NCBI GenBank assembly: GCA_043822685.1
Contig: JBDRBL010000003.1
Coordinates: forward strand, 4,659 to 68,658
Origin: Candidatus Shapirobacteria bacterium
GTDB lineage: Bacteria; Patescibacteriota; Microgenomatia; PFEM01; JBDRBL01
DNA length: 64,000 bases
Direction: 5' to 3'
Every line of letters begins with the position of its first letter. The first letter of the stretch is position 1. A program made the position numbers and the translations under genes. The notes under the pieces are model-generated. The model was not told the origin of the DNA, made no database searches, and saw only the letters and a program-made list of their open reading frames with translations. Below are positions 14,370 to 60,639 of this stretch, one piece after another.

Positions 14370-16478
14370 TTAGAGCGATTGTGTCGGGGAGGGAGCAGGA
14401 GAGGGACAGTGATACTTTGGGGCGGTACCGGCCAAAAAGAGTTCTTTCTTCCTCGTGGGTGAACAAATCTCTGTTTCCTCCATCCCTTCCGGTCTTGGCC
14501 AGCCCCGGTTTTCTTTTAAAATCAGATTCATAATTTTGTTCCAAATCGGTGAAGCACCGGTAATTCCCGATGCCACATAGCTCATCGGCGAATTGTCATT
14601 ATTGCCTACCCATACCGCGGTCAAAAAGTCCGGCGTGTAGCCAATCGTCCAGTTGTCCCGGCGGTTTTGAGTTGTGCCGGTTTTAACGGCGACGTTAGGA
14701 AAGTCTTTGATGTTCAGCCACGAATGTATCCCAAACGCCGGTGACCGCGCTTCTGGATCAGCCAAAATATCGGTTAAAAGATAAGCAATTCGTTCGTCCA
14801 TCACCTTTTCTTTTTTAACGGTCATTTTTTCTAAACTCTGTCCACGCGCGTTTTTCACTTCCAAAATCGGGTTTAGTTCTACTTTTTGTCCCAGATTAGC
14901 TAAAGCGCCGTAAACTACGGCCATATCCGTCATTTTTACTTCGCCCCCGCCCAAAGTTAAGGATAAACCAAAACGTGATCGCTCTTTCCAAGTTGTAATT
15001 CCCATTTTTTCTCCCTGATCAATCATTCTGTTGACTCCCAGCGCGGCCAGCACTTTAACTGCCGGTACGTTATAGGATGAAGCTAGCGCTACCCGTAGCA
15101 CTACCTCGCCGTGAAACCGGTCGTCATAGTTGTTGGGTGAATACGGCGGCTGGCCGGCGACCTCGTAAGTGATGGGTGTGTCCGACAATAAGGTTGCGGC
15201 GGTAAAGCCATTGGCCAAAGCTACAGCGTAATTAATCGGTTTAATTGCCGAGCCTGGTTGGCGGGAGCGGGTTGTTACATTGACATTGCCGTCATTTTCC
15301 AAATCGAAATAGTCTTTTGATCCGACCATGGCCAGTATCTCTCCCGTTTCTGGCCTAGTTACCAAAGCCGCCCCGTTGCTGATTTTTAACGGTTCGATCT
15401 TGCCGATTTCCTCGCTGACAATTTTTTGTACTTTTTTTTGTAACTCCAGATCCAGCGAGGTGTAAACTTCCAGTCCGCCGCTTTCCACCATCGGCTGGCC
15501 ATATTTTTGCTCCAACAGCTCTCTAATGTACATCACGTAATGCGGCGCCTGAATTTCATTTCGCTGTGGCGCGAAATGCACCTCCTCCTTTTTGGTTGCT
15601 TCTTCCGCTTCCTTAGTAATAAACTTTTCTTCTCTCATTCGGCGAAGGACTTCTTCCTGCCTCTGTTTTGCCAATTCCGGGTTAGCGCCAAATGGTGAAT
15701 AAGTCGTTGGTGAAGCCGGTAATCCGGCCAGCAGTGCCGCTTCAGCCAAGTTTAGTTTCGCGGCTGGTTTATCAAAATAACTCCAGCTGGCCTCCTCAAT
15801 TCCGTAAGCCGTTCCGCCAAAGCCTACCTCGTTTAAATACATCTGCATAATTTCGTCCTTGGAAAATTGCCACTCTACCCTCAAGGCCAGTAAGATTTCC
15901 CTGATCTTGCGTGACCAGGTTTTTTCCGGAGTCAAGAGCGCATTTTTGACCAATTGTTGAGTAATCGTTGACCCGCCAACCAACTTTTGTTCCCGAATAT
16001 TTTTCCAAGCGGCTCGAAAAATTCCCTTTAAGGACAAGCCGCGGTGTCGATAAAACTCGGCATCTTCAATGGCGACCACTGCCTGCACTAGGTGAATCGG
16101 CAACTCGTTTATTTTGATCAGTGTTCGGCTTTGGCTGCGGTAAATTTTGTAGAGCAATTGACCGTTGCGATCATAAATTTTGGTTGTCAATAAAGGCTGT
16201 CGGTTTATCAATTGATTTGGATCCGGTAAATCCCTCAAAATTAAAAAATAAAAGTTAAAAAATAAAAACAAAAATCCAACTAAAAAAGCGGGGACTAAAA
16301 TCTTTTTAAAATTAAATTTAAGTTTAGCTGGAGGAAAAACGATAACAGTTTTTTTACGAAGATAGCGAGGTTTTTTTTGACTGGCTTTTTCCAGCAGCCA
16401 AACAAGAAGCCTAAAAAAGGGCTGGCCTATTTTTTGCAAAAACAAAGCTATCGGTGAGCCTGTCCTTCGCCGCTTCAT
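14370..16478 (-). CDS. class A penicillin-binding protein (transglycosylase + transpeptidase)
   Basis: GT51 motifs EDAEFYRHRG, GGSTITQQLVKN; transpeptidase SxxK/KTG regions; N-terminal TM. Confidence 0.85.
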   Translation of the reverse strand: MKRRRTGSPIALFLQKIGQPFFRLLVWLLEKASQKKPRYLRKKTVIVFPPAKLKFNFKKILVPAFLVGFLFLFFNFYFLILRDLPDPNQLINRQPLLTTKIYDRNGQLLYKIYRSQSRTLIKINELPIHLVQAVVAIEDAEFYRHRGLSLKGIFRAAWKNIREQKLVGGSTITQQLVKNALLTPEKTWSRKIREILLALRVEWQFSKDEIMQMYLNEVGFGGTAYGIEEASWSYFDKPAAKLNLAEAALLAGLPASPTTYSPFGANPELAKQRQEEVLRRMREEKFITKEAEEATKKEEVHFAPQRNEIQAPHYVMYIRELLEQKYGQPMVESGGLEVYTSLDLELQKKVQKIVSEEIGKIEPLKISNGAALVTRPETGEILAMVGSKDYFDLENDGNVNVTTRSRQPGSAIKPINYAVALANGFTAATLLSDTPITYEVAGQPPYSPNNYDDRFHGEVVLRVALASSYNVPAVKVLAALGVNRMIDQGEKMGITTWKERSRFGLSLTLGGGEVKMTDMAVVYGALANLGQKVELNPILEVKNARGQSLEKMTVKKEKVMDERIAYLLTDILADPEARSPAFGIHSWLNIKDFPNVAVKTGTTQNRRDNWTIGYTPDFLTAVWVGNNDNSPMSYVASGITGASPIWNKIMNLILKENRGWPRPEGMEETEICSPTRKKELFLAGTAPKYHCPSPAPSPTQSL

Positions 16479-20250: not shown

Positions 20251-22155
20251 ATGAAAAAAAATAAGACGGATGCGACCGATTTTGCTTTGGCGATAAATCA
20301 TAAGCCCGTAAATGGCAACGGTTTTGCTTTTAAGTATGCCGGTAAACGGGGCAATATCGAGATTGATGAAGACGAAGTTGATACCATTGTTGTTGGGGAA
20401 GGAAGCAAGGACGACGCTAATAAAATTAATTCACCCGAGGCGACTAGTTTCACTCTGGCCGAGTACGTCAAAAAAGAATACGCTCTTAAACGTGTTTTTT
20501 CTCCAGATGTTGCGGAGGCTCATAAAAATGGCGATATCCATTTACAAAAATTAGGTTTTATTGATCGACCGTATTGTTCTGGTCAATCAGTGGAGTATGT
20601 TAAAAAATTTGGTTTGGAACGGCACTCGTCTTTTGCGGCGGTCAAACCAGCTGCGCACGCCGACGCTTTAATTGATCATTTACATCGTATGACCATGGCT
20701 TTGCGGGCGCAATTTGGTGGGGCCATTGGTTGGGATGCCGTCAATATGTATGTGGCCCCGTATTTGGTCGGCATGTCAGACGGAGAGATTTACCAAGTTG
20801 CTCAAAAACTGATCTACAGTTTTAATGAAACGACTGGTCCGCATGGGGCACAACCGGTTTTTTCGGATATCAATTTGTATTGGGAAATTCCTGCTCACTT
20901 TGCTGCTGTACCTGCCATTGGTCCGCGCGGCGAATTTACCGGGAAAGTTTATCAGGATTACGAAAAAGAAGCCCAAGCTCTAGTCTGGCAAATCTTTAAT
21001 GTTTATCATCACGGTGACGCTAATGGCGCGCCTTTTTTCTGGCCCAAACCCAACTTACATATTACTAAAAAATTTTGGCAAACACCGCAGCACGAGGCCT
21101 TTCTCGAACATGTTTGTAATGTAGCTGCAACCATGGGTAATCCCTATTTTATTATCGATCGCTCCGATGTGGCCAAAATTTCCGAGTGTTGTCGGATTTC
21201 TTTTGAACTTTCACCGGAAGATTTACAAGATGCTCTAAAACCATGGAAGATGCGCTATGCCGCTTGTCCGTATCTTTCGCCTAATTTACCGCGGTTGGCT
21301 TATCGAGCTAAGCACGATGATCAGAAATTTTTTCGCTATTTAGACGCAACTCTGGCCTTGCTTTTTAAAGCTCATTTGCAAAAACGAAGTTTTTTGAAAC
21401 GTATTTTTGATTTGGGAGAATTGGGCCCCTTATCGATGTTAGCTTATCGGGCGCCCGGCGATGACGAACCCTATTTGCGTTTTGATAAGATGGCCTATTT
21501 GATTGCCTTGGTGGGAGTTGATGACGCGGTGCGTTTTCATTTGGGCAAGGCGATTAACGAATCGGCTGAGGCGTTAAAATTAGCGCTCAAAATTGTCGCT
21601 CATATTCGGTTGCGGTGCCATGAATTTGGTCAAAAACATCATTTAAAAATGGTGGCTGACCAGGCACCATCAGAGTCAACGTGTTATCGTTTGGCTCGTT
21701 TAGATTTAGAATACTATCCAGATCAGGCAAAAAAGATTGTTCATGGCAATTTCAAGACGGGTGAAGTTTACTACACTAACTCTACTCAAGTGGCGGTTGA
21801 TGTGCCGATGGATCCTCTGGAAAGAATTGAATTGGAAGGTCGTTTCCACCCTCTGATGGAAGGGGGTTGCATGACGCATATTTGGATTGGCGAAAAAATG
21901 CCCTCGCCCGCTTCATTGGCTAATGTAGTGAAAAAAACTTTTTACGAAACGCAAAATGTTCAGATTGCTTTCTCGCCCGAGTTTACCGTGTGTTTTAATT
22001 GTGGCCAGACCTCGCGCGGTTTGCATAAGATGTGTTCTTATTGTCATAGTCGACGGGTAGACGGGATTACGCGCATTACTGGTTATTACTCTTTTATTAG
22101 TGCGTGGAATAAAGGCAAAAAGGGTGAATTGAGAGATCGTTATAAAGTCTTTTGA
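20251..22155 (+). CDS. nrdD: anaerobic ribonucleoside-triphosphate reductase (class III RNR) catalytic subunit
   Basis: AHKNGDIHLQKL motif; C-terminal CxxC...CxxC zinc ribbon (CFNCGQ...CSYCHS) and glycyl-radical RITGYYS. Confidence 0.8.
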   Translation: MKKNKTDATDFALAINHKPVNGNGFAFKYAGKRGNIEIDEDEVDTIVVGEGSKDDANKINSPEATSFTLAEYVKKEYALKRVFSPDVAEAHKNGDIHLQKLGFIDRPYCSGQSVEYVKKFGLERHSSFAAVKPAAHADALIDHLHRMTMALRAQFGGAIGWDAVNMYVAPYLVGMSDGEIYQVAQKLIYSFNETTGPHGAQPVFSDINLYWEIPAHFAAVPAIGPRGEFTGKVYQDYEKEAQALVWQIFNVYHHGDANGAPFFWPKPNLHITKKFWQTPQHEAFLEHVCNVAATMGNPYFIIDRSDVAKISECCRISFELSPEDLQDALKPWKMRYAACPYLSPNLPRLAYRAKHDDQKFFRYLDATLALLFKAHLQKRSFLKRIFDLGELGPLSMLAYRAPGDDEPYLRFDKMAYLIALVGVDDAVRFHLGKAINESAEALKLALKIVAHIRLRCHEFGQKHHLKMVADQAPSESTCYRLARLDLEYYPDQAKKIVHGNFKTGEVYYTNSTQVAVDVPMDPLERIELEGRFHPLMEGGCMTHIWIGEKMPSPASLANVVKKTFYETQNVQIAFSPEFTVCFNCGQTSRGLHKMCSYCHSRRVDGITRITGYYSFISAWNKGKKGELRDRYKVF

Positions 22156-22159
22156 AAAT

Positions 22160-24256
22160 ATGACCATTGACGAAGTTAGAAAAAGACGAGATGAGGTTTT
22201 TGAGCGGGCGTATAATGTCCGCCGGTCGGATGAAATCATAAAAAATTGGGACCGGCAGGCGATCATTAAGTCACTGAAGAAAGAATTGGGCGATAAAGAC
22301 GGCTTAACGGAAGAAATTGCCGAAGCGGTTGAGAAAAAGATCTTTAAGATGGATTTGTCGGTGATTACCGGACCATTAGTTCGCGAGACGGTCTGTATTG
22401 AATTATTGTTGCGGGGAATGGAGGAAGAGTATCGGAGATATCAGCGATTAGGGTTACCGATTTATGATGTCCGCAATATTATGATGACGCACAACGAGGC
22501 GGTTTCTTCTAATAATCCTCACACTCCGGAGACAACTAATATGACGATTGCCGGGTCGATCAAAAAAGATTACGCCATGGCGGAAATCTTTTCGCGTGAA
22601 GTCACCGAAGCTCATCTGAAAGGGGATCTTCATCTACACAAGTTGGATTTTCCTGACCGGCCATATTGTTGCGGCAATAGCTTGGAGTACGTTAAAAAAT
22701 ACGGCCTTAATTTGAGCTCGTCTTTGGCGATTGCTCGCCCAGCCAAACACGCCGGTGTTTTGATTTTGCATATGATTAAGTTTTCCTGTATGCTGCAAAT
22801 TCATTTTTCCGGAGCAATTGGCTGGGAAGCGGTTAATATTTTTTTGGCACCGTATTTAGTCGGTTTATCAGAAAAAGAGATTTATGATTTGGCGCAGTTG
22901 TTAGTCTATGAATTTAATACTCAAAACGTGGCCAAGGGCGGGCAGGCGGTTTTTTCCGATATTAATCTCTACTGGGAAGTGCCGGAACACTATCGCCAAA
23001 CGCCGGCGATTGGTCCTGGCGGCAAATATACCGGCAAGACTTATGCTGACTACGAAAAAGAAGCGCAGTTGTTTTTAACCCAATTAATGCAGGTTTATCT
23101 CAAAGGCGATGGCTCCGGCCGGCCTTTTTTTTGGCCTAAGCCCGATTTTCATATGACCGAGCGTTTTTGGCAAACACCGGGGCATAAAGAATTTTTAAAT
23201 TTGGCTTGTCAAGTGGCGAGTAAAATGGGCAATACCGAGTTTTTCTTTGACCGGGGCCAAGCCTCGCGGATTTCCCAATGCTGTCGCTTGTCGTTTAAAC
23301 TCGACAAAAAAGACTTGGAAGAAACCAAAAAACCAGAATTAATGCGCCATTCGGCTACCTCTTGGGTGACGCTTAATCTACCGCGAATCGCTTATGAAGC
23401 TAATCACAATGATGACAAATTATTTTTGTTGTTGAAAAAACGGATGAATTTGGCGGCCAAGGCTCATGTCCAAAAACGACGTTTTATACAAAAAATCCTG
23501 AACTTGAGGACTAATGGTCCCTTATCAGCGTTGTGTACCCGCCAAGTTGATGATCCCTATCCTTTTTACCGTTTTGACCGATCGGTCGAGTTGACCACGA
23601 TTTACGGCGTTAATGAGATGGTTCAATATCATTTGGGTCAACAATTGCATGAATCAGACGACGCGTTAAAGCTAGGGCTTAAAATTGTTTCGATGATGAA
23701 TTTGTACACCAAAGAGCAAAGCCAAAAGTTAAAGTTGCGAATTTGTACCGAGCAAACCCCGGCTGAAGGCACTTCATATCGCCTGGCGCGTTTGGATTTG
23801 CAATGGTTTTCGGACGAAGCAAAACAAGTGGTTAAGGGCAATCAAAAGACCGAAGCGGTTTACTATACCAATTCTTCGCAGTTAAATAATTCGGCGGCAG
23901 TTGATCCGATTGAAAGAATCAAAAAAGAGGGCTTGTTTCACCCTTTAATCGATGCCGGCGCGATGACTCACCTTTGGCTGGGAGAGCAGGAGCCACCGGC
24001 GAACTCTTTAGCTAATTTTATCAAAAAAATTTTTCAGGAAACCAAGTGTGAGTTGGTCGCTTTTTCACCGGAGTTTACTTTATGTTCTGATTGCCGCCAG
24101 ACTACCCGGGGATTAAAAGATGTTTGTTCTTATTGTAATTCAAGAAATATTGACCATATGACCCGTGTTTCCGGTTTCTACTCGCTTACCAGCCGGTGGA
24201 ATAAGGGCAAGATGCAAGAGTTAAAAGACAGATACCGGAACGATAATAAATTTTAA
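22160..24256 (+). CDS. nrdD: class III RNR catalytic subunit, second paralog, with an N-terminal ATP-cone-like extension
   Basis: about 55% identity to the upstream paralog over the core; CSDCRQ...CSYCNS and RVSGFYS; N-terminal roughly 100 aa resembles an ATP-cone. Confidence 0.8.
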   Translation: MTIDEVRKRRDEVFERAYNVRRSDEIIKNWDRQAIIKSLKKELGDKDGLTEEIAEAVEKKIFKMDLSVITGPLVRETVCIELLLRGMEEEYRRYQRLGLPIYDVRNIMMTHNEAVSSNNPHTPETTNMTIAGSIKKDYAMAEIFSREVTEAHLKGDLHLHKLDFPDRPYCCGNSLEYVKKYGLNLSSSLAIARPAKHAGVLILHMIKFSCMLQIHFSGAIGWEAVNIFLAPYLVGLSEKEIYDLAQLLVYEFNTQNVAKGGQAVFSDINLYWEVPEHYRQTPAIGPGGKYTGKTYADYEKEAQLFLTQLMQVYLKGDGSGRPFFWPKPDFHMTERFWQTPGHKEFLNLACQVASKMGNTEFFFDRGQASRISQCCRLSFKLDKKDLEETKKPELMRHSATSWVTLNLPRIAYEANHNDDKLFLLLKKRMNLAAKAHVQKRRFIQKILNLRTNGPLSALCTRQVDDPYPFYRFDRSVELTTIYGVNEMVQYHLGQQLHESDDALKLGLKIVSMMNLYTKEQSQKLKLRICTEQTPAEGTSYRLARLDLQWFSDEAKQVVKGNQKTEAVYYTNSSQLNNSAAVDPIERIKKEGLFHPLIDAGAMTHLWLGEQEPPANSLANFIKKIFQETKCELVAFSPEFTLCSDCRQTTRGLKDVCSYCNSRNIDHMTRVSGFYSLTSRWNKGKMQELKDRYRNDNKF

Positions 24257-24517
24257 ATGACACTCAAACTTTTTACTCAACCAAATTGTTCGAAGTGCCC
24301 AACTGCGCATGCGCTCGTGCACCAGTTAACAGTTAACAGTGAACAGTTAATAGTCGAAGAGTACAACGTCACTACTGCTGACGGCTTGGCGGAGGCAAGT
24401 TTTTACTCGGTGATGGCGACTCCCAGTTTGGTTTTACTGGATGATTCCGGTAAAGAAATCCACACCTGGCGCGCCGAAACACCGAGTTTGACAGAGATCA
24501 ATGCTTTACTACGATAA
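24257..24517 (+). CDS. small thioredoxin/glutaredoxin-fold protein with CxxC (NrdH-like candidate reductant); contains a heptamer-repeat insert
   Basis: TQPNCSKCP redox motif near the N-terminus; sits between nrdD and nrdG. Confidence 0.5.
   Translation: MTLKLFTQPNCSKCPTAHALVHQLTVNSEQLIVEEYNVTTADGLAEASFYSVMATPSLVLLDDSGKEIHTWRAETPSLTEINALLR
24323..24357. repeat. heptanucleotide tandem repeat (CAGTTAA)x5 embedded in-frame in the thioredoxin-like CDS
   Basis: cagttaa cagttaa cagtgaa cagttaa tagtcga read directly; encodes QLTVNSEQLIVE. Confidence 0.55.
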
Positions 24518-24532
24518 TACGTATCATTATAG
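24509..24532. repeat. degenerate copy of the dispersed palindromic element, immediately upstream of nrdG
   Basis: CTACGATAATACGTATCATTATAG compared with the consensus CTATGATGATACGnATCATCGTAG. Confidence 0.45.
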
Positions 24533-24538
24533 CAAGAG

Positions 24539-25231
24539 ATGAGAATTGCTGGGTATTTAAGAACTTCGCTCATTGAGTGGCCGGGGAAGATCAGCAGTGT
24601 CATTTTTACGCCCGGGTGTAATTTTGCCTGTCCCTTTTGTCATAACGCGGATCTAGTGAGGAACAAGGGAACGCAGGAAATTAGTGAACAGTCGGTTTTG
24701 GAAGATTTGAAGAAGCGGAAAAAATGGATCGATGGCGTGGTGATTACCGGTGGAGAGCCGACGCTTCAGCCGGATCTGCCTGAATTTATCGCCAAAGTAA
24801 AAAAATTGGGTTTTGAAATAATGCTGGAGACAAATGGCAGTTTACCCCAAAACCTTCAAAAAACGCTTCCACTTCTTGATTATTTATCGCTGGATTTTAA
24901 GACAAGATTTGAGGACTACTCCAAAGTGGTCAGAAATAAAAATTTTGATGTTAGAGATTGGCAAAAAAGTCTGCGCTTAATAATTGCGGCCCAAATCCCT
25001 TTTGAAATCCGTACGACAGTTGTACCAACAATTCACAATCAGCAAGTTTTAGTCGCCATGGCCCAAGAATTATCTAAACAACTAGCTTGTTCTACTTGGT
25101 TCTGGCAATCTTTTGTTCCCCAAAACTGTTTGGACAAATCTTTTCTCAAAATCAAACCCCATCCCGTGACCGAGTTAGAAACTCTTGCCCGCCAAGCGAA
25201 AAATTTTTACTCCGAAATTAAAATTAAATAA
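24539..25231 (+). CDS. nrdG: anaerobic RNR activating protein (radical SAM)
   Basis: CNFACPFCHN radical-SAM cysteine motif; position downstream of nrdD. Confidence 0.8.
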   Translation: MRIAGYLRTSLIEWPGKISSVIFTPGCNFACPFCHNADLVRNKGTQEISEQSVLEDLKKRKKWIDGVVITGGEPTLQPDLPEFIAKVKKLGFEIMLETNGSLPQNLQKTLPLLDYLSLDFKTRFEDYSKVVRNKNFDVRDWQKSLRLIIAAQIPFEIRTTVVPTIHNQQVLVAMAQELSKQLACSTWFWQSFVPQNCLDKSFLKIKPHPVTELETLARQAKNFYSEIKIK

Positions 25232-25257: not shown

Positions 25258-25605
25258 ATGGTGAGTGATGAGCGCAAGGATATTCCCAGTGTTGAACCAG
25301 AAACAGTTAAATATACCGAAGTTGAGACGACTCCGGAAATTGGTCCGGAGGTTAAGGATTGGTTGACCCAGCTGGAGCAAGGCGAGGAAATTAAACTGCC
25401 CCAGCCGGTGACCGATGATCAAGGTCAGATTTTGGTGAGCAATGTGGCTCCACAGCAAGTAACGATCACTTTACCTTTAACCGAAGCGGAGATGAGGCGC
25501 GCTCTGCATTTAAAACTAGTTTATGCCGCTCGTTGGTTGGGGGAGCAGATGAACCGGCTGTCGCAAATTATGGGAGGAAGGCTTGTTTATAAATTCAAAA
25601 GTTGA
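25258..25605 (+). CDS. hypothetical protein, acidic
   Basis: ORF track; stop/start overlap with the downstream ATPase gene. Confidence 0.35.
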   Translation: MVSDERKDIPSVEPETVKYTEVETTPEIGPEVKDWLTQLEQGEEIKLPQPVTDDQGQILVSNVAPQQVTITLPLTEAEMRRALHLKLVYAARWLGEQMNRLSQIMGGRLVYKFKS

Positions 25606-27944
25606 ATATGGAATTGATTGACAATTTTCTTAATCGTTTGCTTTCTTGGCTGGTGATTTTAGCGACGGTGGCGCTGGTTGCCGGGGCGTTGGCCTTGGTT
25701 TTTTACGCTTTTTTTGTCTGGTGGAAATATCGTCGTCGCGAAAAACAATCCCTAGAATATTTGATACTTCAAATTGCCGTACCTCATGATAATGAGATTA
25801 AAATTGATGCCGCCGAGCAGATGTTTGCTTCCCTGGCTTCCATAAAAAAAGGTGGCTGGTTTTCTTTTTTACGCCCCCAGCCGCACCTTGCTTTTGAAAT
25901 TTTGGCTAAACACGAGGATATTTGTTTTTATCTTTCGGTTCATCGCAAGATGCGCGATTTGGTGGAAAAACAAATTTATGGTGCCTATCCCGATGCCAAA
26001 TTGCTCGAAGTTGAGGAGCCCACGATTTTTACTCAAAACGGCAAAGTTGCTTTTGCCGAGATGCAGTTTCGCTCGAGTGCCTACCTTCCCCTCAAGGTTT
26101 ACAAAGATCTTCCTACTGACCCTCTTTCGGCGATTACCGCGGTGATGGCCAAGATGGGTGAGGAGGAGGGGGCGGTGATTCAAATTTTAATCTCTCCCGC
26201 CGACGGTAAGTGGAGAAACAAGGGCCATGCTTATGTTTCTCGTATCAAGAAGAACGAAAGTAATCCGGAGAAGGCTAAATTTGCTGTTGACCCCAAGGAT
26301 TTGGAGGCGATTGAGAATAAGTGTTCCAAGCCCGGTTTCAAAACTTACCTGCGTTTTGTTGTCTGCGCCCCCGATTTAGAGCAGGCTAATGCTCATTTAG
26401 GCAATCTTAAAAGCGCCTTTTCTCAATTTGATTCTCATCTTAACAGCTTCAAAAGCAAAAAAACATGGCTTAAGAAATCCTTTATGCTCGACTTTATTTA
26501 TCGCTATCAGCCGCGCTGGACATGGCGTACCAATAGCGCTATTTTAAATTCAGAGGAGTTGGCCACGGTTTTTCACTTGCCTAACAAACAAGTGGAAACG
26601 CCCCACCTGCGCTGGGTTTATTCCAAACGTTCCCCGGCACCGATTAATATTCCCACCGGCGGTTTATTGCTGGGTCGTAATGTTTTTCGCGGGGTTACCC
26701 GGCCGGTCTATCTCACCGACTCCGATCGCCGCCGGCACATCTATATTATTGGCCGTACCGGCGTCGGCAAAACAGAACTAATGCGCGATCTGATTTTGCA
26801 GGATATTCGTTCGGGTAAGGGAGTTTGCCTGATTGATCCTCATGATATTGCCGAGGATATTCTTAATTTTATCCCGCCGGAGAGAGCCGAAGACGTGATT
26901 TATTTTGATCCTTCCGACGAAGAGCGGCCGCTAGGTTTAAATTTACTCGAAGCGCACACTGAACAACAAAAGCACTTTGTGACCACCGGTATTATTAATT
27001 TAATGTATAAGCTTTTTGATCCTTATAAAACAGGAATTGTCGGGCCGCGCTTTGAACACGGAGTGAGAAACGCAATGTTGACGGTCATGTCCGAGCCGGG
27101 GGCTACTTTTATCGAGGTCGTTCGGATTATGACCGATTCCCGTCTGGTCCAGGAATACCTGCCTAAAGTTACCGACGCTATGGTGCGCCGCTATTGGACT
27201 GATCAAATTGCCCAAACCTCTGATTTTCACAAGTCCGAGGTTTTGGACTACACCGTTTCCAAGTTCGGTCGTTTCGTTACCAATAAAATGATGCGGAATA
27301 TCATTGGTCAATCAGAGTCTTCTTTTGATTTCCGCAAAGTTACGGATGAGGGAAAAATCTTGATTATTAATTTGGCTAAAGGTAAATTGGGGGAGGAAAA
27401 TTCTAATTTTTTGGGCCCGATTTTGGTGCCGAAGATTCTTATGGCGGCGATGTCGCGCCAAGACACTCCCGAGGAACAGCGGAAAGACTTTTATTTATAT
27501 GTGGATGAGTTTCAAAACTTTGCCACGCCTGATTTTGCCCAAATTTTGTCCGAGGCGCGCAAGTATCGGCTTAATTTGTGCGTTGCCAACCAATTTATTG
27601 GTCAAATGGAGGAGGAAGTTAAAAACGCGGTTTTTGGCAACGTTGGAACATTGATTTCTTTTAATATTGGGGTCACGGATGCCAACTTTTTGCAGCATTG
27701 GTTTGCACCTACCTTCGGGGAGGATGACCTGATTAACATCGAAAAATATAACGCCTATATCAAAACAATCGTTAAGAGCGAGCCTCAACCGCCTTTCTCG
27801 ATGGATTTATCTAAAGATATGGCGGAACTTAATCGCCAGCGCAATCCACGCGTTTCGGAGATGATCAAACAGCTTTCCCGGCTCAAGTATGGCCGCGCCA
27901 GAGAGGTTGTTGAGGCGCAAATTACCCAGCGGGCAAGATTATAG
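25602..27944 (+). CDS. membrane-anchored P-loop ATPase of the type IV secretion type (VirD4/TraD coupling-protein or VirB4-like; FtsK/HerA superfamily)
   Basis: N-terminal TM; Walker A IGRTGVGKT; Walker B-like YLYVDEFQNF; 780 aa. Confidence 0.5.
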   Translation: MNMELIDNFLNRLLSWLVILATVALVAGALALVFYAFFVWWKYRRREKQSLEYLILQIAVPHDNEIKIDAAEQMFASLASIKKGGWFSFLRPQPHLAFEILAKHEDICFYLSVHRKMRDLVEKQIYGAYPDAKLLEVEEPTIFTQNGKVAFAEMQFRSSAYLPLKVYKDLPTDPLSAITAVMAKMGEEEGAVIQILISPADGKWRNKGHAYVSRIKKNESNPEKAKFAVDPKDLEAIENKCSKPGFKTYLRFVVCAPDLEQANAHLGNLKSAFSQFDSHLNSFKSKKTWLKKSFMLDFIYRYQPRWTWRTNSAILNSEELATVFHLPNKQVETPHLRWVYSKRSPAPINIPTGGLLLGRNVFRGVTRPVYLTDSDRRRHIYIIGRTGVGKTELMRDLILQDIRSGKGVCLIDPHDIAEDILNFIPPERAEDVIYFDPSDEERPLGLNLLEAHTEQQKHFVTTGIINLMYKLFDPYKTGIVGPRFEHGVRNAMLTVMSEPGATFIEVVRIMTDSRLVQEYLPKVTDAMVRRYWTDQIAQTSDFHKSEVLDYTVSKFGRFVTNKMMRNIIGQSESSFDFRKVTDEGKILIINLAKGKLGEENSNFLGPILVPKILMAAMSRQDTPEEQRKDFYLYVDEFQNFATPDFAQILSEARKYRLNLCVANQFIGQMEEEVKNAVFGNVGTLISFNIGVTDANFLQHWFAPTFGEDDLINIEKYNAYIKTIVKSEPQPPFSMDLSKDMAELNRQRNPRVSEMIKQLSRLKYGRAREVVEAQITQRARL

Positions 27945-36906: not shown

Positions 36907-37687
36907 AGTAGAAACGATTAGATTACAACTGGATAAGGCGATTAGGGGTCGGCGAATTGTGGGGGTGGAAGTTTTGACTCCAAAAAGTTTTCTTGGTGAC
37001 CCTAAAAAAATAATCGGCAAAAAAGTTTTAGGTGTAGAGCGACGGGCAAAAATTACGTTGATCAGACTGAAAGACGGTTTTTGCTTAGCAATTCACCTAA
37101 AACTTACTGGTCAGCTAATTTTTGATGCTGATTTTGATCGGAAATATATTCGGGTAATAATTACTTTTGATAATGGAAAAAGGTTGTTTTTCAATGATTT
37201 GCGTATTTTTGGTTGGATTAAGATTGTTAAAAATAATTTGGATTTGGAAAAATTAGGGCCGGAGGCGATAGATGAGCAAACTTTTAATTTAAAATATTTT
37301 CAAGACGTTTTGGCCAAGACTAATCGAGCTATAAAGCTGGTAATTTTAGATCAAAAGATCTTGGCGGGTGTGGGCAATATTTATGCTAACGAAGCTTTGT
37401 TTGCGGCCAAAATTGATCCCCGTCGGCCAGCCAAAAGTCTTAAATTCGAAGAAATTAAATTTCTGCGGCAAGAAATTATAACAGTTTTACGCGAGGCAAT
37501 TACACACCACGGCACTTCCGACAAAGATGAGGCCTATCGCCAGCTGAATGGCCGAAAGGGCCAGTATCAGCGCTATCTACAAGTTTATGGGCGGACGGGT
37601 CAAGTCTGCCCCAAATGCGGCACGGTGATTAGAAGAATTAAAATTGGGGGACGAGGAACGTTTTTTTGCCAGAAATGTCAAATATAG
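36890..37687 (+). CDS. mutM: formamidopyrimidine-DNA glycosylase
   Basis: MPELPEVE N-terminus (catalytic Pro2/Glu3); C-terminal zinc finger CPKCG...CQKCQ. Confidence 0.85.
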   Translation: MPELPEVETIRLQLDKAIRGRRIVGVEVLTPKSFLGDPKKIIGKKVLGVERRAKITLIRLKDGFCLAIHLKLTGQLIFDADFDRKYIRVIITFDNGKRLFFNDLRIFGWIKIVKNNLDLEKLGPEAIDEQTFNLKYFQDVLAKTNRAIKLVILDQKILAGVGNIYANEALFAAKIDPRRPAKSLKFEEIKFLRQEIITVLREAITHHGTSDKDEAYRQLNGRKGQYQRYLQVYGRTGQVCPKCGTVIRRIKIGGRGTFFCQKCQI

Positions 37688-37689
37688 CC

Positions 37690-37710
37690 AATAGTTAACA
37701 GTTAATGGTT
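37690..37710. repeat. heptamer repeat (AATAGTT AACAGTT AATGGTT) at the fpg-recF junction, overlapping the recF start
   Basis: read directly. Confidence 0.45.
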
Positions 37711-41325: not shown

Positions 41326-43040
41326 CCTTTTTTGAATTGGCGCAGTTTTTGGCTCGTCTGGAGGCAACTTCTTCTCGTCTGCAAATTACGCAAATTTTGG
41401 CGGAACTGTTTGCTAAGACCAATCAAGAAGAGATTGATAAGGTTTGCTATCTAACTCAAGGTTGTTTGGCGCCGTCTTATGAAGGCTTGGAATTTAATTT
41501 GGCGGAAAAATTATTAATTCGAGCTGTAGCCCGGGCAGCCGATACCACTGAGACAGAAGTGAAAAAACTTTATCAGCAAAAAGGCGATCTTGGTGATGTG
41601 GTCAAAGAATTAAGAATTAAGTCCCGCCGCAGCGGGATAAAACTAACTGAAGTTTATGGGCTTTTAAGGAGAATTGCCCGAGAGAGCGGCGAGGGATCGG
41701 TGGAAAGAAAGATTGATTTGATGGCTGATTTACTCCGCCGGCTTGATTCTTTGAGCGCCAAATATGTGGCCCGTATTCCTTTGGGGAAATTGCGTTTGGG
41801 TTTTTCCGAATTAACAATTTTGGACGCATTATCTTGGTTAATGAGTGGCGATAAACGTCATCGGGAAGAAATTGAGAGAGCTTATGAGGTTAGAGCTGAC
41901 ATTGGAGCAATTGCCAAATTGGTTAAAACTTCCGGCCTGCAGGGCTTGAAGACCATCGAACCGGAGGTGGGGGTGCCGATTTTGTCTGCCTTGTGTCAAC
42001 GTCTGCCGGCTTTTGAAGAAATGATTGAGAAAATGGGCGAGGTGGCAGTGGAGCCAAAATATGACGGCAGCCGGGTCCAAATTCACTACCGACGCAAATT
42101 GCCGATTTTAAGAATTTTTACCAGGAATTTGGAAAATGTGACTCATATGTATCCGGATTTAGTCAGGGCAGTTAAGGGAGAAATTAAAGCTGATGAGGTG
42201 ATTTTAGATGGTGAAGCGGTTGGTTTTGACCCCCGAACTGATCGGATTTTACCTTTTCAGGAGACAATCAAACGCAAACGCAAGTATGAAATTGCCCTTT
42301 TTAGCCAGAGTATTCCGCTAAAATGTTTTGTTTTTGATATTTTGGTTTACAACGGTCGGAATATGATGACGAGACCTCTAAATGAGCGGAGAAAAATTCT
42401 TGAGCGAGTTGTGCTTGGTGGCACACTGGTTTTAACACCGCAAATTGTGACACAAAAAATTGATGAGTTAAAAAGATTTTACGATCGGCAAATTGCTCGT
42501 GGCTTGGAGGGGGTAGTGGCCAAAAAATGGGACTCGGTTTATGATCCGGGCCGGCGAGGTTTTAACTGGGTGAAGCTCAAAAGCGAAACGAGTAAAAAAG
42601 GCGCGGGGTTGGCTGACACTTTGGATTGTGCGGTCATGGGCTTGTATCGGGGCAAGGGCAAGCGCACCGGTTTTGGCGTCGGGGCTTTTTTGGTGGGGGT
42701 TCGCCGAAGCGAAAATATTGACAACTTTCTTTCGGTTTCCAAAATCGGTACTGGACTTACAGATGAACAGTTTCGTGAGTTAAAGGCTCGAAGTGAACAG
42801 TTAATAGCTAATAGTAAACAGTCAAGCTATCAAGTTGATAAGAACCTGGAACCGGATGTTTGGTTGAAGCCGGGTTTGGTAGTGGAGATTCAGGCGGATA
42901 ATATTACCGTTTCACCCATTCACACTGCCGGTTATGCGCTGCGTTTTCCGCGTTTGGTGCGGTTTCGCGACGATAAAAAGGCTTCCCAAGCTACAACACT
43001 GGCAGAGTTGAAAAAACTTTACCAACTCCAAAAACGGTAA
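41307..43040 (+). CDS. ATP-dependent DNA ligase
   Basis: KxDG adenylation motif in EPKYDGSRVQIH; OB-fold C-terminus; contains a heptamer-repeat insert at 42795-42822. Confidence 0.8.
   Translation: MFEKIMTFFELAQFLARLEATSSRLQITQILAELFAKTNQEEIDKVCYLTQGCLAPSYEGLEFNLAEKLLIRAVARAADTTETEVKKLYQQKGDLGDVVKELRIKSRRSGIKLTEVYGLLRRIARESGEGSVERKIDLMADLLRRLDSLSAKYVARIPLGKLRLGFSELTILDALSWLMSGDKRHREEIERAYEVRADIGAIAKLVKTSGLQGLKTIEPEVGVPILSALCQRLPAFEEMIEKMGEVAVEPKYDGSRVQIHYRRKLPILRIFTRNLENVTHMYPDLVRAVKGEIKADEVILDGEAVGFDPRTDRILPFQETIKRKRKYEIALFSQSIPLKCFVFDILVYNGRNMMTRPLNERRKILERVVLGGTLVLTPQIVTQKIDELKRFYDRQIARGLEGVVAKKWDSVYDPGRRGFNWVKLKSETSKKGAGLADTLDCAVMGLYRGKGKRTGFGVGAFLVGVRRSENIDNFLSVSKIGTGLTDEQFRELKARSEQLIANSKQSSYQVDKNLEPDVWLKPGLVVEIQADNITVSPIHTAGYALRFPRLVRFRDDKKASQATTLAELKKLYQLQKR
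42795..42822. repeat. heptamer repeat (GAACAGT TAATAGC TAATAGT AAACAGT) inside the DNA ligase CDS
   Basis: read directly; encodes SEQLIANSKQS. Confidence 0.5.
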
Positions 43041-44977: not shown

Positions 44978-47317
44978 GTGCAAGGATTAAGCGGCCAAGA
45001 AGCTAGGCAAAAACTTCAGCAATTTGGTTTTAATGAATTACAAGCAGTCAGGGGAGTTTCTTTTGGCGAGTTGTTGGTGTCGCAATTTCGCTCGCCCTTG
45101 GTTTACGTTTTGCTCGCCTCGGCTCTAATTACTTTGTACTTAAAAGATTGGACCGATTCCTTGGTGATCTTTATTGCTGTTTTGGCCACGGGATTTTTTG
45201 GCTACTGGCAGGAGAGTCGAGCGCAAAAAGCCCTCGTTGCCTTGCGAAAAACAATTGTTTCTCAAGCTAAAGTGATACGCGAAGGCAAGCAAAGATTCAT
45301 TCCTGTCCGCGAGTTGGTTCCCGGCGACGTGGTGATTTTAACTATTGGTGATCAGGTTCCCGCCGACGGGGTTTTGTTTGAATCAACTGACCTTTTAATT
45401 AACGAAGCCATTCTAACCGGCGAGTCGCTGCCGGTGAAAAAGAAAACCGGCGAGACCGCTTTTATGGGAACGATTATCAGTCATGGGATTGCCCGCATGA
45501 AGGTTTCAATTACTGGTCGTCAAACCAAAATGGGGCGAATTGGCCAATTGGTGAGCCAGATTGATGACCAGAAAACACCTCTGCAGCTTCAATTGTCTCG
45601 ATTGGTGGGCCAAATAAGCTTGATTTCTTTAGCGGTGGGTGGAGTAATTTTTGTCTTAAGTGGCAATTTCCCTTTGGCAGTAGCCGTGGTCGTGGCGGCA
45701 ATTCCCGAGGGCTTGGTGGTGTCATTGACAATTATTTTAGCTTTGGGCATGAAGCGTTTGTTTAAACGCAAGGCCTTGGTGCGGCGTTTTATTGGCGCCG
45801 AGACGTTGGGGTCGATCTCAACTTTGTGTTTGGATAAAACAGGTACGCTTACCGAGGGAAAAATGAGCGTGGTTGATTTTTTAACTGACGATAAAGAGTT
45901 GTTGGTTAAGGCGGCGCTATGGTGTAACGATATGCGCGATCCCCTCGAGATCGCTATGACGGAATGGGGGAAGAAAGAAGCAAAGAGCAAAGAGCAAATG
46001 GCAAATAGCCAGAGATTGGATGAGATCCCGTTTTCTCCGCAGGCAAAATTGATTGCTACCCTGCACCAGGGCGGCTTGCTTTTAGTTTCCGGCGCGCCGG
46101 AGGCAATTTTGGCTAAATGTTCTCATCCACCTAATTTGGACAAGCAATTCGAAATTTTTGCCCAACAAGGTTTACGTCTTGTTGGTTTTGCCTCAAAGCA
46201 GGTTAGCAATAAGCAATTAGCAATTAGCAATTCTGATCTTAGTGATCTTTCCTGGCTCGGAATTCTCGTTTTTGAGGATCCGATCCGAGAGGGCGTGGCT
46301 CAGATGATCCAACAATGCTATCAAGCGGGTTTAAAAATCAAAGTGATTACCGGTGATTATCCGGAAACGGCCAAGGCGATTATTAATAAATTAAAAATTG
46401 TCGGAGATGGTGTGATTACCGGTGAGGAGTTGAAAGAACTTTCTTTTGAGGAGTTAAAGGAGGTGATCGATCAGATTGTTCTGTTTGCCCGGACGGCTCC
46501 GGATCAAAAATTAAAAATTGTTCAGGCTCTGAAAGCCAAGGGTGAAGTGGTGGGGATGATGGGAGATGGCGTGAATGATGCCCCGGCGCTGGCCGCGGCC
46601 GATGTTGGCATCGTGATGGATAATGCGGTTGATGTGGCCAAACAAACCGCGCAACTGGTTTTGCTTGATTCCAATTTTGCCACCATTTTGGCGGCGATTG
46701 AAGGCGGCCGGAGTATTTTTGACAATATTCGCAAGACGGTTATTTATTTGCTTTCGGATAGCTTGATCGAGGTTACTTTTGTAGTGGGGGCGCTTTTGCT
46801 GGGCTTTCCGGCGCCTTTAGCGGCCGCGCAAATTATCTGGCTCAATCTGGTGGAGGATATTTTGCCCGGAATTGCCTTGGCTTTTGAACAAGGGGAGGCG
46901 GGTATTCTGTTGCGATCACCCCGTTTGCCGGGTACGGGGATTTTTACTTCTCGTTTTCGTTTTTTCACTTTGGCAATAGTTGTTGTTACCAACTTGCTTT
47001 TATGGCTAGTTCTTGTCTTTGGAGCTAGTCAAACTTTTATCTTTGCGGCGACCGGTTTACACTCGCTTCTGGCGGTTTTTGTTTTGCGTTCTTTTCACCG
47101 GCCTTTTTGGCGAAGTAAAATTTTTGCCAATCGGGCAATAAATTTGGCGGTGGGGATGGGGTTGTTTTTGCTCGTGCTGGCCATTTATTGGCCGCCCTTA
47201 CAGTTTTTACTTAAAACTCAGCCTTTGACCGCTTTTCAATGGCTGGCGCTTTTGGTGCTAGGCTTGATTAATTTGTTTTCACTTGAAGGGGTCAAAAAAT
47301 TGGCAAGGCTGGTATAA
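44978..47317 (+). CDS. P-type cation-transporting ATPase (type II/III-like)
   Basis: DKTGTLT phosphorylation motif, GDGVNDAPAL, PEGL in TM4; contains two heptamer-repeat inserts. Confidence 0.8.
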   Translation: MQGLSGQEARQKLQQFGFNELQAVRGVSFGELLVSQFRSPLVYVLLASALITLYLKDWTDSLVIFIAVLATGFFGYWQESRAQKALVALRKTIVSQAKVIREGKQRFIPVRELVPGDVVILTIGDQVPADGVLFESTDLLINEAILTGESLPVKKKTGETAFMGTIISHGIARMKVSITGRQTKMGRIGQLVSQIDDQKTPLQLQLSRLVGQISLISLAVGGVIFVLSGNFPLAVAVVVAAIPEGLVVSLTIILALGMKRLFKRKALVRRFIGAETLGSISTLCLDKTGTLTEGKMSVVDFLTDDKELLVKAALWCNDMRDPLEIAMTEWGKKEAKSKEQMANSQRLDEIPFSPQAKLIATLHQGGLLLVSGAPEAILAKCSHPPNLDKQFEIFAQQGLRLVGFASKQVSNKQLAISNSDLSDLSWLGILVFEDPIREGVAQMIQQCYQAGLKIKVITGDYPETAKAIINKLKIVGDGVITGEELKELSFEELKEVIDQIVLFARTAPDQKLKIVQALKAKGEVVGMMGDGVNDAPALAAADVGIVMDNAVDVAKQTAQLVLLDSNFATILAAIEGGRSIFDNIRKTVIYLLSDSLIEVTFVVGALLLGFPAPLAAAQIIWLNLVEDILPGIALAFEQGEAGILLRSPRLPGTGIFTSRFRFFTLAIVVVTNLLLWLVLVFGASQTFIFAATGLHSLLAVFVLRSFHRPFWRSKIFANRAINLAVGMGLFLLVLAIYWPPLQFLLKTQPLTAFQWLALLVLGLINLFSLEGVKKLARLV
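45980..46007. repeat. heptamer repeat (GCAAAGA x2, GCAAATG, GCAAATA) inside the P-type ATPase CDS
   Basis: read directly; encodes AKSKEQMANSQ. Confidence 0.5.
46203..46230. repeat. heptamer repeat (TTAGCAA TAAGCAA TTAGCAA TTAGCAA) inside the P-type ATPase CDS
   Basis: read directly; encodes VSNKQLAISNS. Confidence 0.55.
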
Positions 47318-60628: not shown

Positions 60629-60639
60629 AAATTGTTTTA

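Follow-up and report, generated by a model that had tools for sequence, protein, structure and literature searches.

Why do tandem repeats with a 7-nt unit recur in unrelated protein-coding genes of a single bacterial genome? The question is raised by a 64-kb stretch of DNA (the window, analyzed here over its full length) from Candidatus Shapirobacteria (Patescibacteria), with proteins 100% identical to those of a Candidatus Shapirobacteria MAG. Among the ‘prime-number’ periodicities of prokaryotic DNA, none is as common as the tandem heptamer (PMC6344855). A preliminary description of the window had taken six such arrays for frame-preserving insertions, and had offered a slipped-strand hotspot, a mobile mini-insertion or the footprint of a site-specific process as their source.

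Heptamer arrays in the window

The arrays, and one hairpin adjoining them, are as follows.

16237-16268, no strand assigned: A/T-only period-7/14 tract between two minus-strand ORFs
24323-24357, + strand: (CAGTTAA)x~5 in the thioredoxin-like gene of an nrdD-nrdD-trx-nrdG operon, encoding QLTVNSEQLIVE
37690-37710, + strand: about 2.5 copies of the NAACAGT family, which occupy the fpg-recF spacer and extend over the recF ATG
41605-41621, + strand: (AAGAATT)x2.4 in the DNA ligase linker from GDLG to LTEVY (ligase hot spot 1)
41622-41637, + strand: GC-rich mini-hairpin TCCCGC-CGCA-GCGGGA in the ligase gene, in frame and abutting the (AAGAATT)x2.4 array
42795-42822, + strand: degenerate (NAAYAGY)x4 in the C-terminal OB domain of the ATP-dependent DNA ligase (ligase hot spot 3), encoding EQLIANSKQ
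45974-46009, + strand: (GCAAAGA/AAAGAGC)x~4-5 in a variable loop of the P-type ATPase N domain, encoding KEAKSKEQMANS (TRF)
46203-46232, + strand: (TTAGCAA)x4.3 in a second variable loop of the P-type ATPase, encoding VSNKQLAISNS (TRF)
60606-60633, + strand: (AAAAATT)x4 at the 3' end of a thioredoxin gene and in the spacer before a trxB-like start
62030-62063, + strand: (AGTYAAC)x4.9 in the glutamate dehydrogenase (gdh) variable loop from DEY to FTGKP, encoding SQQLTVNSQQS (TRF)
62169-62203, + strand: weak period-7 tract of AGCAATT/AACAATT type in a second gdh loop, placed by alignment

The six arrays noted at the outset lie at, or within a few bases of, the positions first given; TRF calls four of them, at 24323-24354 (CAGTTAA x4.6) in the thioredoxin-like gene, 45974-46009, 46203-46232 and 62030-62063. 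Domain matches confirm the host genes as they had been named: Thioredoxin_3, ATP-dependent DNA ligase, ELFV (Glu/Leu/Phe/Val) dehydrogenase, a RecF-like protein with SMC_N and AAA domains, and a P-type ATPase; the peptides had also been quoted correctly. The copy at 37690-37710 does overlap the recF ATG, as described, and it fills the 17-nt spacer that separates the fpg stop (37685-37687) from the ATG at 37705. Five of these six arrays lie in CDSs and one in a spacer, a distribution that is not mainly intergenic. The arrays at 41605-41621, 62169-62203, 60606-60633 and 16237-16268 were absent from the preliminary description. Its statement that copy counts preserve the reading frame does not hold, as the arrays are 28-35 nt long, with no multiple of 21 or 3. 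Arrays similar to the (AAAAATT)x4 at 60606-60633 are present in many Patescibacteria loci. The mini-hairpin at 41622-41637 is possibly a separate small element; AAGTCCCGCCNCAGCGGGAT and CCCGCCTGCCGGAYGGGCAGG are the hairpin sequences tied to the question of array-plus-hairpin modules, which we take up below.

Period 7 is the sole enriched tandem period in the window, with 4 strong arrays vs 0.03 in dinucleotide shuffles. When the window was scanned with the 18-mer CAGTTAACAGTTAACAGT and up to 3 mismatches were allowed, 4 loci returned 8 matches, each on the + strand, vs 0.01 expected, and this bears out the earlier observation that one unit family, NAACAGT, recurs across unrelated genes. The AGCAATT family occupies 2 loci of the 64 kb, the gdh tract at 62169-62203 being of the same family as the ATPase array at 46203, and at least four unrelated unit families coexist in the window. 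Because the 7-nt unit is out of register with codons, an array is read in all three frames. In-frame NAA positions carry a base other than T in 5/5 cases and out-of-frame positions read TAA in 7/9, which points to stop avoidance: the third unit of the thioredoxin-like array has GAA in place of an in-frame TAA, and the gdh array at 62030-62063 has CAA at its in-frame NAA positions. A dispersed single-copy motif of the uptake, Chi or KOPS kind was considered and rejected, since AACAGT occurs 25 times vs 21 expected, and the arrays themselves make up the excess. At gathering score, Rfam models matched only 4 tRNAs in the window, and the arrays were without a match.

Replacement of protein segments

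Comparison with orthologues speaks against insertion. The repeat segment of the thioredoxin-like protein aligns without gaps to 19 orthologues, and in an AF2 model (pLDDT 94) its residues 23-34 run from the last part of helix a1 through a loop into the first part of strand b2. The ligase segment at 42795-42822 has the modal length of 39 aa in 105/119 orthologues, and the array loop of the ATPase is no longer than those of 23 homologues. At all five coding sites the orthologue alignments were gap-free or of average length, and a lineage-specific insertion is therefore rejected at five of five. The alignments that the preliminary description had proposed as its own refutation test thus show zero net insertion, where it had spoken of repeats inserted into genes and generating short inserts; the net insertion expected of a MITE-like or SDR-like mobile mini-element is absent from the same five sites. 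Of the three mechanisms first offered, the mobile mini-insertion and the site-specific footprint are without a sign in these alignments, and the slipped-strand hotspot fits best. Judged from sequence, the repeats replace existing protein segments at their native length, and these segments are in part structured.

Period 7 in related Patescibacteria loci

In 966 kb of Patescibacteria loci bearing the ligase, a sample centered on that gene and hence biased, we found 73 period-7 arrays vs 0-7 for each other period from 4 to 15, with shuffles near 0. Period 7 still gave 40 arrays vs at most 7 for the other periods once ligase genes were excluded, and arrays of period 3, 6, 9 and 12 were nearly absent. 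About 84% of these arrays fall in ORFs, and in a count of 82 arrays 70 did so, against a baseline of 91% of positions (p=0.07), so coding DNA is not depleted of them. The units are mostly A-rich (AAAAGTC, AAATGTC, AAATTCC), and each genome prefers a few unit families that are common to unrelated genes, as in L132, where 11.5 kb hold 13 arrays. Lengths of 27-37 nt predominate among the arrays, and GC content was uncorrelated with array density (r = -0.04).

Hot spots and unit turnover

Arrays return to orthologous sites with differing units in gdh, the thioredoxin-like gene and the ligase. The gdh loop between DEY and FTGKP holds (AAAGTTC)x5 in L001 and (CTCAAAA)x7 in L003, both unlike the unit in the window. 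Strong period-7 arrays occur in 10/76 ligase orthologues at hot spot 1 and in 10/76 at hot spot 3; at the latter, period-7 self-match exceeds 0.5 in 11/76, and the 65/76 orthologues that are without an array show no length difference. Units can change in concert, with (AAATGTC)n in L132, L137 and L141 vs (AGGTGTC)n in L136 at an identical site and in an identical register. L129 and L131 share 88% identity over the ligase gene and 91% when 2.8 kb are compared, yet the unit is AAAAGTT in the one and AAAATTG in the other, and hot spot 1 is hypervariable.

Four near-identical pairs of related Patescibacteria contigs (L001/L002, L136/L146, L147/L149 and L182/L185; 99.1-100% identity) showed no differences in copy number, which suggests that slippage is slow or strongly filtered. 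The annotated proteins of the window itself were found on a single contig. Since a slip by a single unit is a frameshift, turnover would have to proceed by three-unit steps or by length-neutral templated patches.

Origin of the arrays

We consider the arrays to be, more likely than not, heptanucleotide simple-sequence repeats that arise by slippage or misaligned templated repair and are filtered by selection. Either slippage during replication or repair synthesis templated in misalignment, working in a 7-nt register, would create and homogenize arrays at the level of DNA, and in the Patescibacteria lineage this process would strike coding DNA as freely as the scarce non-coding DNA. Where a gene is tolerant, a tract of some 28-35 nt would thereby be turned periodic with its net length unchanged, and selection would purge variants that shift the frame, bring in an in-frame stop or encode an intolerable peptide. 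Such a model could account for arrays that are perfect up to the limit set by the frame, exactly every third unit having its TAA mutated, for the sense strand being the A-rich strand, and for the siting of arrays in surface loops, linkers and the substitution-tolerant ends of helices and strands. Arrays of this kind would be self-perpetuating and would evolve in concert, and differing units at one orthologous site across lineages would follow. We infer both the mechanism, slippage or templated repair, and its neutrality. Slippage alone does not explain the per-genome unit families common to unrelated genes, the clustering of lengths at 27-37 nt, or the period of 7 itself. For the last, polymerase contact length has been suggested (Mrazek et al. 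2007, in the summary given by PMC4679880), and heptamers are reported as the most abundant long simple-sequence repeats (LSSRs, with 5-11-nt units) in most genomes examined, slippage having been proposed (PMC4679880, PMC6344855).

Functional cis-elements offer a different reading, in which the arrays are tandem DNA or mRNA binding sites for a lineage-specific protein (a translational regulator, nucleoid protein or replication factor) selected even within genes. Several arrays do lie just before starts (37690-37710 at recF, 60606-60633 at trxB, and L147 9859/9951 at the ligase), a placement shared with the TAACTGA repeats of Beggiatoaceae (PMC4679880), and the genome-specific unit families, the conserved hot spots and the single orientation of all NAACAGT copies in the window are in keeping with selected sites. 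The orientation bias is, however, largely due to stop codons and peptide chemistry. Genomes carry several unrelated units (at least four families in the window), the unit of one site switches between genomes that are 88-91% identical, and the ligase site is array-less in 65/76 orthologues of like length. The host genes have no functional theme, and RNA folding of five arrays gave z-scores of -1.9 to +0.2, with no significant structure. We therefore regard cis-element function as unlikely. Rather less likely still is copying between loci, whether by a very small mobile element or by short-patch ectopic conversion of about 30 nt, that would move arrays or array-plus-hairpin modules. It would make sense of the shared unit in unrelated genes of a single genome and of the narrow range of lengths (27-37 nt), and the hairpins are in keeping with it. 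The segment at 41605-41637 of the window, (AAGAATT)n followed by TCCCGCCGCAGCGGGA, has a near-identical counterpart, with an adjacent array, in an unrelated EndoQ-like gene of L188 (19/20 nt, E=0.013); in L129 and L131 the hairpin CCCGCCTGCCGGAYGGGCAGG is enclosed by arrays that lie at different loci, the L131 ligase being without CCCGCCTGCCGGAYGGGCAGG; and a GC-rich hairpin with a 6-bp stem was met close to an array 6 times vs about 1.3 expected. Yet this is a handful of cases, GC islands adjoining arrays are not enriched by a looser test (18 vs 32 expected), unit differences between loci are too large for recent copying, neither the five coding sites of the window nor the L188 site shows a net insertion, and, short of a systematic search, target-site duplications and terminal repeats were not noticed around the arrays.

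The remaining readings we rate far lower. That the periodicity follows, in an AT-rich genome, from selection for Lys/Ser/Gln-rich peptides of 7-residue period is highly improbable: a 7-nt period requires coordinated synonymous choices, and synonymous-codon shuffles gave a period-7 match above 0.5 in 0/76 genes vs the 11/76 observed at the C-terminal ligase site. These are thus repeats at the level of DNA, as first described, and not codon repeats, which would have a period that is a multiple of three and is explained by the peptide. Related peptides do recur (LKVKSEK, QLTVNSE), and the ancestral, array-less sequence of the ligase site already resembled xLKxKSxxLKVK; but spacers carry arrays too, and peptides like CQMSNVKCQ displace the conserved pattern wholly. 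Phase-variation (contingency) switching, in which the gain or loss of one unit shifts the frame and turns a gene off or on, has a shade less to recommend it. A single slip of the out-of-frame unit is indeed a frameshift, and heptanucleotide repeats are reported to drive phase variation in Haemophilus (PMC8262952). The hosts here are housekeeping genes (DNA ligase, gdh, the redoxin of the nrd operon, the P-type ATPase) rather than surface, virulence or dispensable genes, the arrays, with their 4-5 units, are short as well as interrupted, every ORF is intact, and the four near-identical contig pairs from related Patescibacteria show no difference in copy number. An artefact of assembly or sequencing, which one might suspect given that the source is a MAG, has a negligible chance of being the cause, as assemblies made independently, with different samples and different pipelines, contain identical arrays (L001/L002, L136/L146, L147/L149), frames are intact, and the phenomenon recurs in NCBI, JGI, ENA and Logan data.

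Beyond heptanucleotide slippage or templated repair filtered by selection, we raise one wider conjecture, to which we give about the same low standing as the cis-elements: Patescibacteria and filamentous cyanobacteria might share an active, so far unrecognized DNA process that rewrites tracts of about 30 nt in a 7-nt register and that could also copy array-plus-hairpin modules from one gene to an unrelated one, with length kept. If so, this would be short-patch templated ‘overwriting’ distinct from slippage or transposition of the classical kind; a specific molecular machine would have left the heptamer arrays as its footprint, and DNA repeats would keep giving rise to new protein segments in these lineages.

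With about 91% of their positions in long ORFs, the sampled Patescibacteria loci offer a natural experiment in which a process acts on coding DNA under strong selection that can be read out as frame, stop and peptide. The orthologous hot spots with their unit turnover should make rates and mechanism measurable, including the choice between three-unit steps and length-neutral patches. Repeats at the DNA level can overwrite helix and strand segments of essential enzymes, and are in this way a source of lineage-specific protein sequence. Such overwriting is likewise a caveat for alignment, phylogeny and annotation of Patescibacteria genomes.

Comparison with known repeat systems

The window arrays are heptanucleotide repeats of a known kind, of LSSR or STRR type. 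STRR (short tandemly repeated repetitive) is the cyanobacterial name for such arrays, and CAACAGT is presumably ‘STRR3’. Mazel et al. in 1990 and Vioque in 1997 reportedly described STRR heptanucleotide sequences in filamentous heterocyst-forming cyanobacteria, the latter, to go by its title as cited in PMC4748335, inside a functional gene, that for RNase P RNA. The window arrays resemble STRRs in their 7-nt unit, their short tandem arrays with many dispersed copies, and their genome-specific unit families, and a 21-nt super-period of TAA-TAA-GAA also occurs in the cyanobacterial locus L013. The unit itself is the same: the exact 18-mer CAGTTAACAGTTAACAGT is present in more than 120 stretches, mostly of filamentous cyanobacteria, and (CAGTTAA)n with its CAGTGAA and CAGTCAA variants is abundant in Microcoleus, Nostoc, Calothrix, Rivularia, Kamptonema and others, the taxa with the unit being cyanobacteria, Bacteroidota and Thiotrichaceae. 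The host here, unlike that of an STRR in the strict sense, is not a cyanobacterium. Unlike STRRs, the window arrays lie mainly in protein-coding genes and overwrite native segments, while in cyanobacteria-dominated loci, a biased set chosen for the presence of arrays, 27/284 arrays were in long ORFs vs a baseline of 82%. The SDR very small mobile elements of Nostoc are said to be embedded in heptamer repeats (Elhai et al. 2008), and the GC-rich hairpin modules within heptamer arrays (window 41622-41637; L129, L131, L141, L144) recall them. They differ in amounting to a handful of cases with no demonstrated multi-copy family, and in causing no net insertion where testable (L188).

In the literature, STRRs are described as 7-bp repeats of unknown function (PMC2670836), and heptanucleotide tandem repeats are a recognized prokaryotic class (PMC4679880, PMC4692102, PMC6344855). 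The novelty first claimed therefore does not extend to the class, and belongs to the pervasive intragenic form in Patescibacteria, which appears undescribed, no report of it having been found in the CPR/Patescibacteria literature searched. As in the LSSR class, the window arrays are head-to-tail 7-nt units in at least 3 copies (TRF and period scan) and exceed chance in number, both in the window (4 vs 0.03) and in related loci (73 vs about 0). The LSSR surveys likewise report 7 as the dominant tandem period, and polymerase slippage has been proposed (PMC4679880, PMC6344855); there, heptamers are chiefly intergenic and genes carry units that are multiples of three, whereas in Patescibacteria it is period 7 that is found in genes. 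The GGGNATC repeats of Xanthomonas and Nostoc (Rehm et al. 2015, PMC4692102) are also heptamer arrays dispersed genome-wide, with about four units preferred; the window arrays differ in being A/T-rich, without structure and not under-represented in ORFs. With the tandem repeats of Borg elements (PMC9879509) the window arrays have in common that fast-evolving DNA-level repeats in ORFs rewrite protein segments, there creating disordered regions; the window arrays, with their 7-nt unit, add no length and can encode structured elements.

The TAACTGA repeats of marine Beggiatoaceae, cyanobacteria and Bacteroidetes (MacGregor 2015, PMC4679880) come close in sequence as well, since (ATAACTG)n is one base from (TTAACTG)n, the complement of the window unit, and their taxonomic spread is similar. 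They too form arrays of 2-6 copies, some directly upstream of starts, with occasional copies within ORFs that fall in variable surface loops and are limited in orientation by the stop codons of the unit (PMC4679880). These repeats are mostly intergenic and one unit dominates (PMC4679880), whereas the arrays of Patescibacteria comprise several units and are mostly intragenic.

Period-7 arrays in the window

The period-7 arrays of the window are real and significant. A period scan finds four strong period-7 arrays, against 0.03 in dinucleotide shuffles; periods 4-6 and 8-15 show no excess like this. The array at 24323-24357 reads CAGTTAA CAGTTAA CAGTGAA CAGTTAA TAGTC, and the 18-mer CAGTTAACAGTTAACAGT, with up to 3 mismatches, recurs at 24323, 37692, 42798 and 62029 (0.01 matches expected), on the + strand in all cases. 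The preliminary description had placed heptamer arrays in coding sequences at these points, which the sequence, Tandem Repeats Finder and the period scan bear out, and the domain families found agree with the host genes it named.

Arrays in the window (TRF, called by Tandem Repeats Finder)
24323-24357 (TRF, 24323-24354): Thioredoxin_3-family (trx-like) protein
37690-37710: copy in the 17-nt spacer from the fpg stop to the ATG of recF, which encodes a RecF-like (SMC_N/AAA) protein
42795-42822: ATP-dependent DNA ligase
45974-46009 and 46203-46232 (TRF): P-type ATPase
62030-62063 (TRF): Glu/Leu/Phe/Val dehydrogenase (gdh)
16237-16268, 41605-41621, 57843-57858 and 60606-60633 (TRF): smaller arrays

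The last of these, (AAAAATT)x4, runs from the final codons of a thioredoxin gene through its stop and across the spacer up to a trxB-like start. Similar A/T-only heptamer arrays are present in many related loci; our low-complexity filter dropped them, so the array counts reported here are underestimates. GC skew is positive in each 4-kb step across 1-64000 and the + strand holds most long ORFs, and array orientation relative to transcription is therefore inseparable from orientation relative to replication.

Arrays replace native coding sequence

The repeats had been read as insertions whose copy counts preserve the reading frame. Neither part of that reading holds: orthologue alignments show segments of native length at the trx-like, ligase, ATPase and gdh sites, and the arrays, at 28-35 nt, are multiples of neither 3 nor 21. 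What keeps the frame is replacement of sequence rather than addition. The trx-like peptide HQLTVNSEQLIVEE aligns without gaps to 19 homologues (e.g., RQLKVKSSMLKIEE and KSLIVNRESLIVEE), and in an AlphaFold model (pLDDT 94) residues 23-34 run from the end of helix 14-27 through a loop into the first part of strand 32-37. The ligase segment from GLTDEQ to PDVW is 39 residues long, the modal value, as it is in 105/119 orthologues. The two ATPase arrays occupy variable N-domain loops that are no longer than in 23 homologues, and the gdh array lies in a variable loop, DEY to FTGKP, about as long as in the closest orthologues. One gdh homologue, P0024, carries an extra ~25-30 residues (…ENFPVHDSLRENSRGSHKSSRRSQ…) at the heptamer-bearing loop (alignment columns ~170-205).

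Because the unit contains TAA, a perfect three-unit array would stop translation in every frame of both strands. In the trx-like, ligase and gdh arrays, none of the five in-frame NAA positions begins with T (GAA, CAA, CAA, GAA, AAA); out of frame, TAA occupies seven of nine. The coding arrays reach the maximum perfection that the reading frame permits.

Neighboring genes

The trx-like gene belongs to an nrdD-nrdD-trx-radical-SAM operon. Its gene order, a tandem pair of full-length nrdD genes (634 and 698 aa), then the small trx-like gene, then a radical-SAM activase, is conserved between the window (20251-25231) and L126, another Patescibacteria contig (6001-10953). Downstream, after ~370 bp in the window (25602-27944) and 900 bp in L126 (11871-14204), is a gene for a ~780-aa protein with TraG/TrwB-like coupling-protein domains; a conserved nrd neighborhood is unexpected for a conjugation-type ATPase. 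Among the Patescibacteria ligase loci L128-L207, ~30 have a gene a few kb downstream of the ligase (e.g., L188 8018-9502) that we labeled EndoQ-like by eye from motifs. The 936-aa ligase homologue P0195 has precomputed PF14528 and PF14890 between its ligase domains; we take these to be intein-related, which would point to a ligase intein in a relative.

Hot spots and unit turnover

Period-7 tracts recur at orthologous sites of other Patescibacteria. The gdh loop holds (AAAGTTC)x5, encoding FKVQSSKFKV, in locus L001, whose gdh gene has two more arrays, and (CTCAAAA)x7 in L003. At the trx-like site, four orthologues are periodic with units ending in TTAA; self-match is 0.49-0.66 at period 7 and 0.1-0.56 at other periods, with period 8 nearly equaling period 7 in L125 (0.47 vs 0.49). 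In 76 codon-aligned ligase genes, arrays recur at three places, and period 7 accounts for 202 scan positions, against 0-4 for periods 5, 6, 8 and 9.

Ligase hot spots (reference residues, genes with arrays among 76)
~100-109: 10 genes
200-219: 4 genes
490-509: 10 genes (the window's own array scores under the scan threshold)

At the C-terminal ligase site, 65/76 genes have ordinary, non-periodic sequence of equal length (e.g., ELKKRLSGLEVKDKPKEY); period-7 self-match exceeds 0.5 in the other 11, and in none after synonymous-codon shuffling. The (AAATGTC)n of L132, L137 and L141 stands in identical register to the (AGGTGTC)n of L136, so each unit has both substitutions, which amounts to concerted evolution. 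The ligase genes of L129 and L131 are 88% identical, and 2.8 kb of the two loci 91%; at this site they have (AAAAGTT)n and (AAAATTG)n, respectively, and their hot spot 1 has diverged past recognition. Hot spot 1 is a linker of 29-63 residues, and arrays there do lengthen it somewhat.

Spread among Patescibacteria

Period-7 arrays are a lineage-wide phenomenon in Patescibacteria. In 80 metagenome loci with ligase orthologues (966 kb) there are 73 strong period-7 arrays, against 0-7 for each other period from 4 to 15 and ~0 in shuffles. Leaving out the ligase genes gives 40 against at most 7, so the signal is no ligase artifact. Density falls from 1.9 per 10 kb, where the ligase is nearest the window's, to 0.4 per 10 kb in more distant loci; L132, an 11.5-kb contig, has 13 arrays. 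Once the window, L001 and L126 are added, 69/82 arrays fall within stop-free ORFs of 100 codons or more (70/82 counting the 86-codon trx gene), no depletion from ORFs relative to the 91% baseline for a random 33-nt window (p = 0.07). Lengths concentrate at 27-37 nt. Sense-orientation units are mostly A-rich (AAAAGTC, AAATGTC, AAATTCC, AAAAGTT and similar), with A exceeding T in 50/64 non-redundant arrays and in 11/12 whose unit is stop-free both ways round.

Hairpin modules

At ligase hot spot 1 of the window (41605-41637), (AAGAATT)x2.4 is followed at once by the hairpin TCCCGC-CGCA-GCGGGA. A near-identical pair, AAGAATTAAGAATAAAGAAG and TCCCGCCTCAGCGGGA, occurs in the unrelated EndoQ-like gene of L188, a distant Patescibacteria contig, with no length change relative to orthologues. 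GC-rich hairpins also lie inside arrays of L129, L131, L141 and L144; examples in this AT-rich coding DNA include TCCCGC-loop-GCGGGA, CCCGCCTGCCGGAYGGGCAGG and stems with UUCG-type loops.

In-frame GC-rich hairpin modules in or abutting arrays
Window 41622-41637
L188 9059-9075
L129 ~1409-1430
L131 1310-1326
L141 1490-1580
L144 4232-4279

By a strict definition 6 hairpins lie near arrays against ~1.3 expected, and by a loose one 18 against 32; with statistics this mixed, the association is a lead only. SDR mini-elements occur within heptamer repeats in Nostoc, and the hairpins inside Patescibacteria arrays can be likened to them.

Origin of the arrays

The data fit a DNA-level process with a 7-nt register that would make adjacent units alike, either by whole-unit slippage or by transient misalignment with templated synthesis, the products then being filtered by selection. 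At the C-terminal ligase site, the fall from 11/76 to 0 under synonymous shuffling argues against a by-product of protein-level selection. Structured RNA was rejected after an RNA-fold test and a dispersed motif after a motif-count test, and independent assemblies concur, which disposes of an assembly artifact. The host genes make phase variation unlikely, as does the absence of polymorphism: four contig pairs from different samples or assemblies (99.1-100% identity) show no array indels. For the copies immediately upstream of recF and trxB a binding-site function is conceivable, but it poorly fits the diversity and turnover of units. Slippage does not account for why the period is 7, why unit families are specific to genomes or why lengths fall in so narrow a range.

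Comparison with known heptamer repeats

The preliminary description was aware of no account of such repeats. The kind of element is already known: these are heptanucleotide simple-sequence repeats like the STRRs of cyanobacteria, which are described as having 7-bp units and unknown function (PMC2670836). In the literature searched we found no mention of heptamer repeats in Patescibacteria (CPR), and their pervasive intragenic, length-neutral, hot-spot-bound form there appears undescribed within the literature searchable; it merits systematic survey. Elsewhere, heptamer repeats are chiefly intergenic (PMC4692102, PMC6344855). TAACTGA repeats of Beggiatoaceae, cyanobacteria and Bacteroidetes (PMC4679880) are one base off the complement of the window unit. 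In that paper, Mrazek et al. 2007 are cited for heptanucleotides as the most abundant category of long simple-sequence repeats (LSSRs, 5-11-nt units) in most genomes examined, for polymerase slippage as the proposed cause, and for multiples of three as the usual units in genes.

With one genome per species, the exact 18-mer matches at least 120 stretches, overwhelmingly from filamentous cyanobacteria among the matches listed (Microcoleus, Kamptonema, Nostoc, Calothrix, Rivularia, Fischerella, Tychonema and others), with a few from Bacteroidota, Acidobacteriota, Obscuribacterales and Thiotrichaceae. These loci share the CAGTGAA and CAGTCAA variants of the window arrays, and one, L013, has the same 21-nt super-period. 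They hold 284 period-7 arrays, against at most 18 for other periods. Unlike in Patescibacteria, long ORFs hold just 27 of the 284 where the baseline is 82%, a contrast that is indicative only since the set was chosen for array presence.
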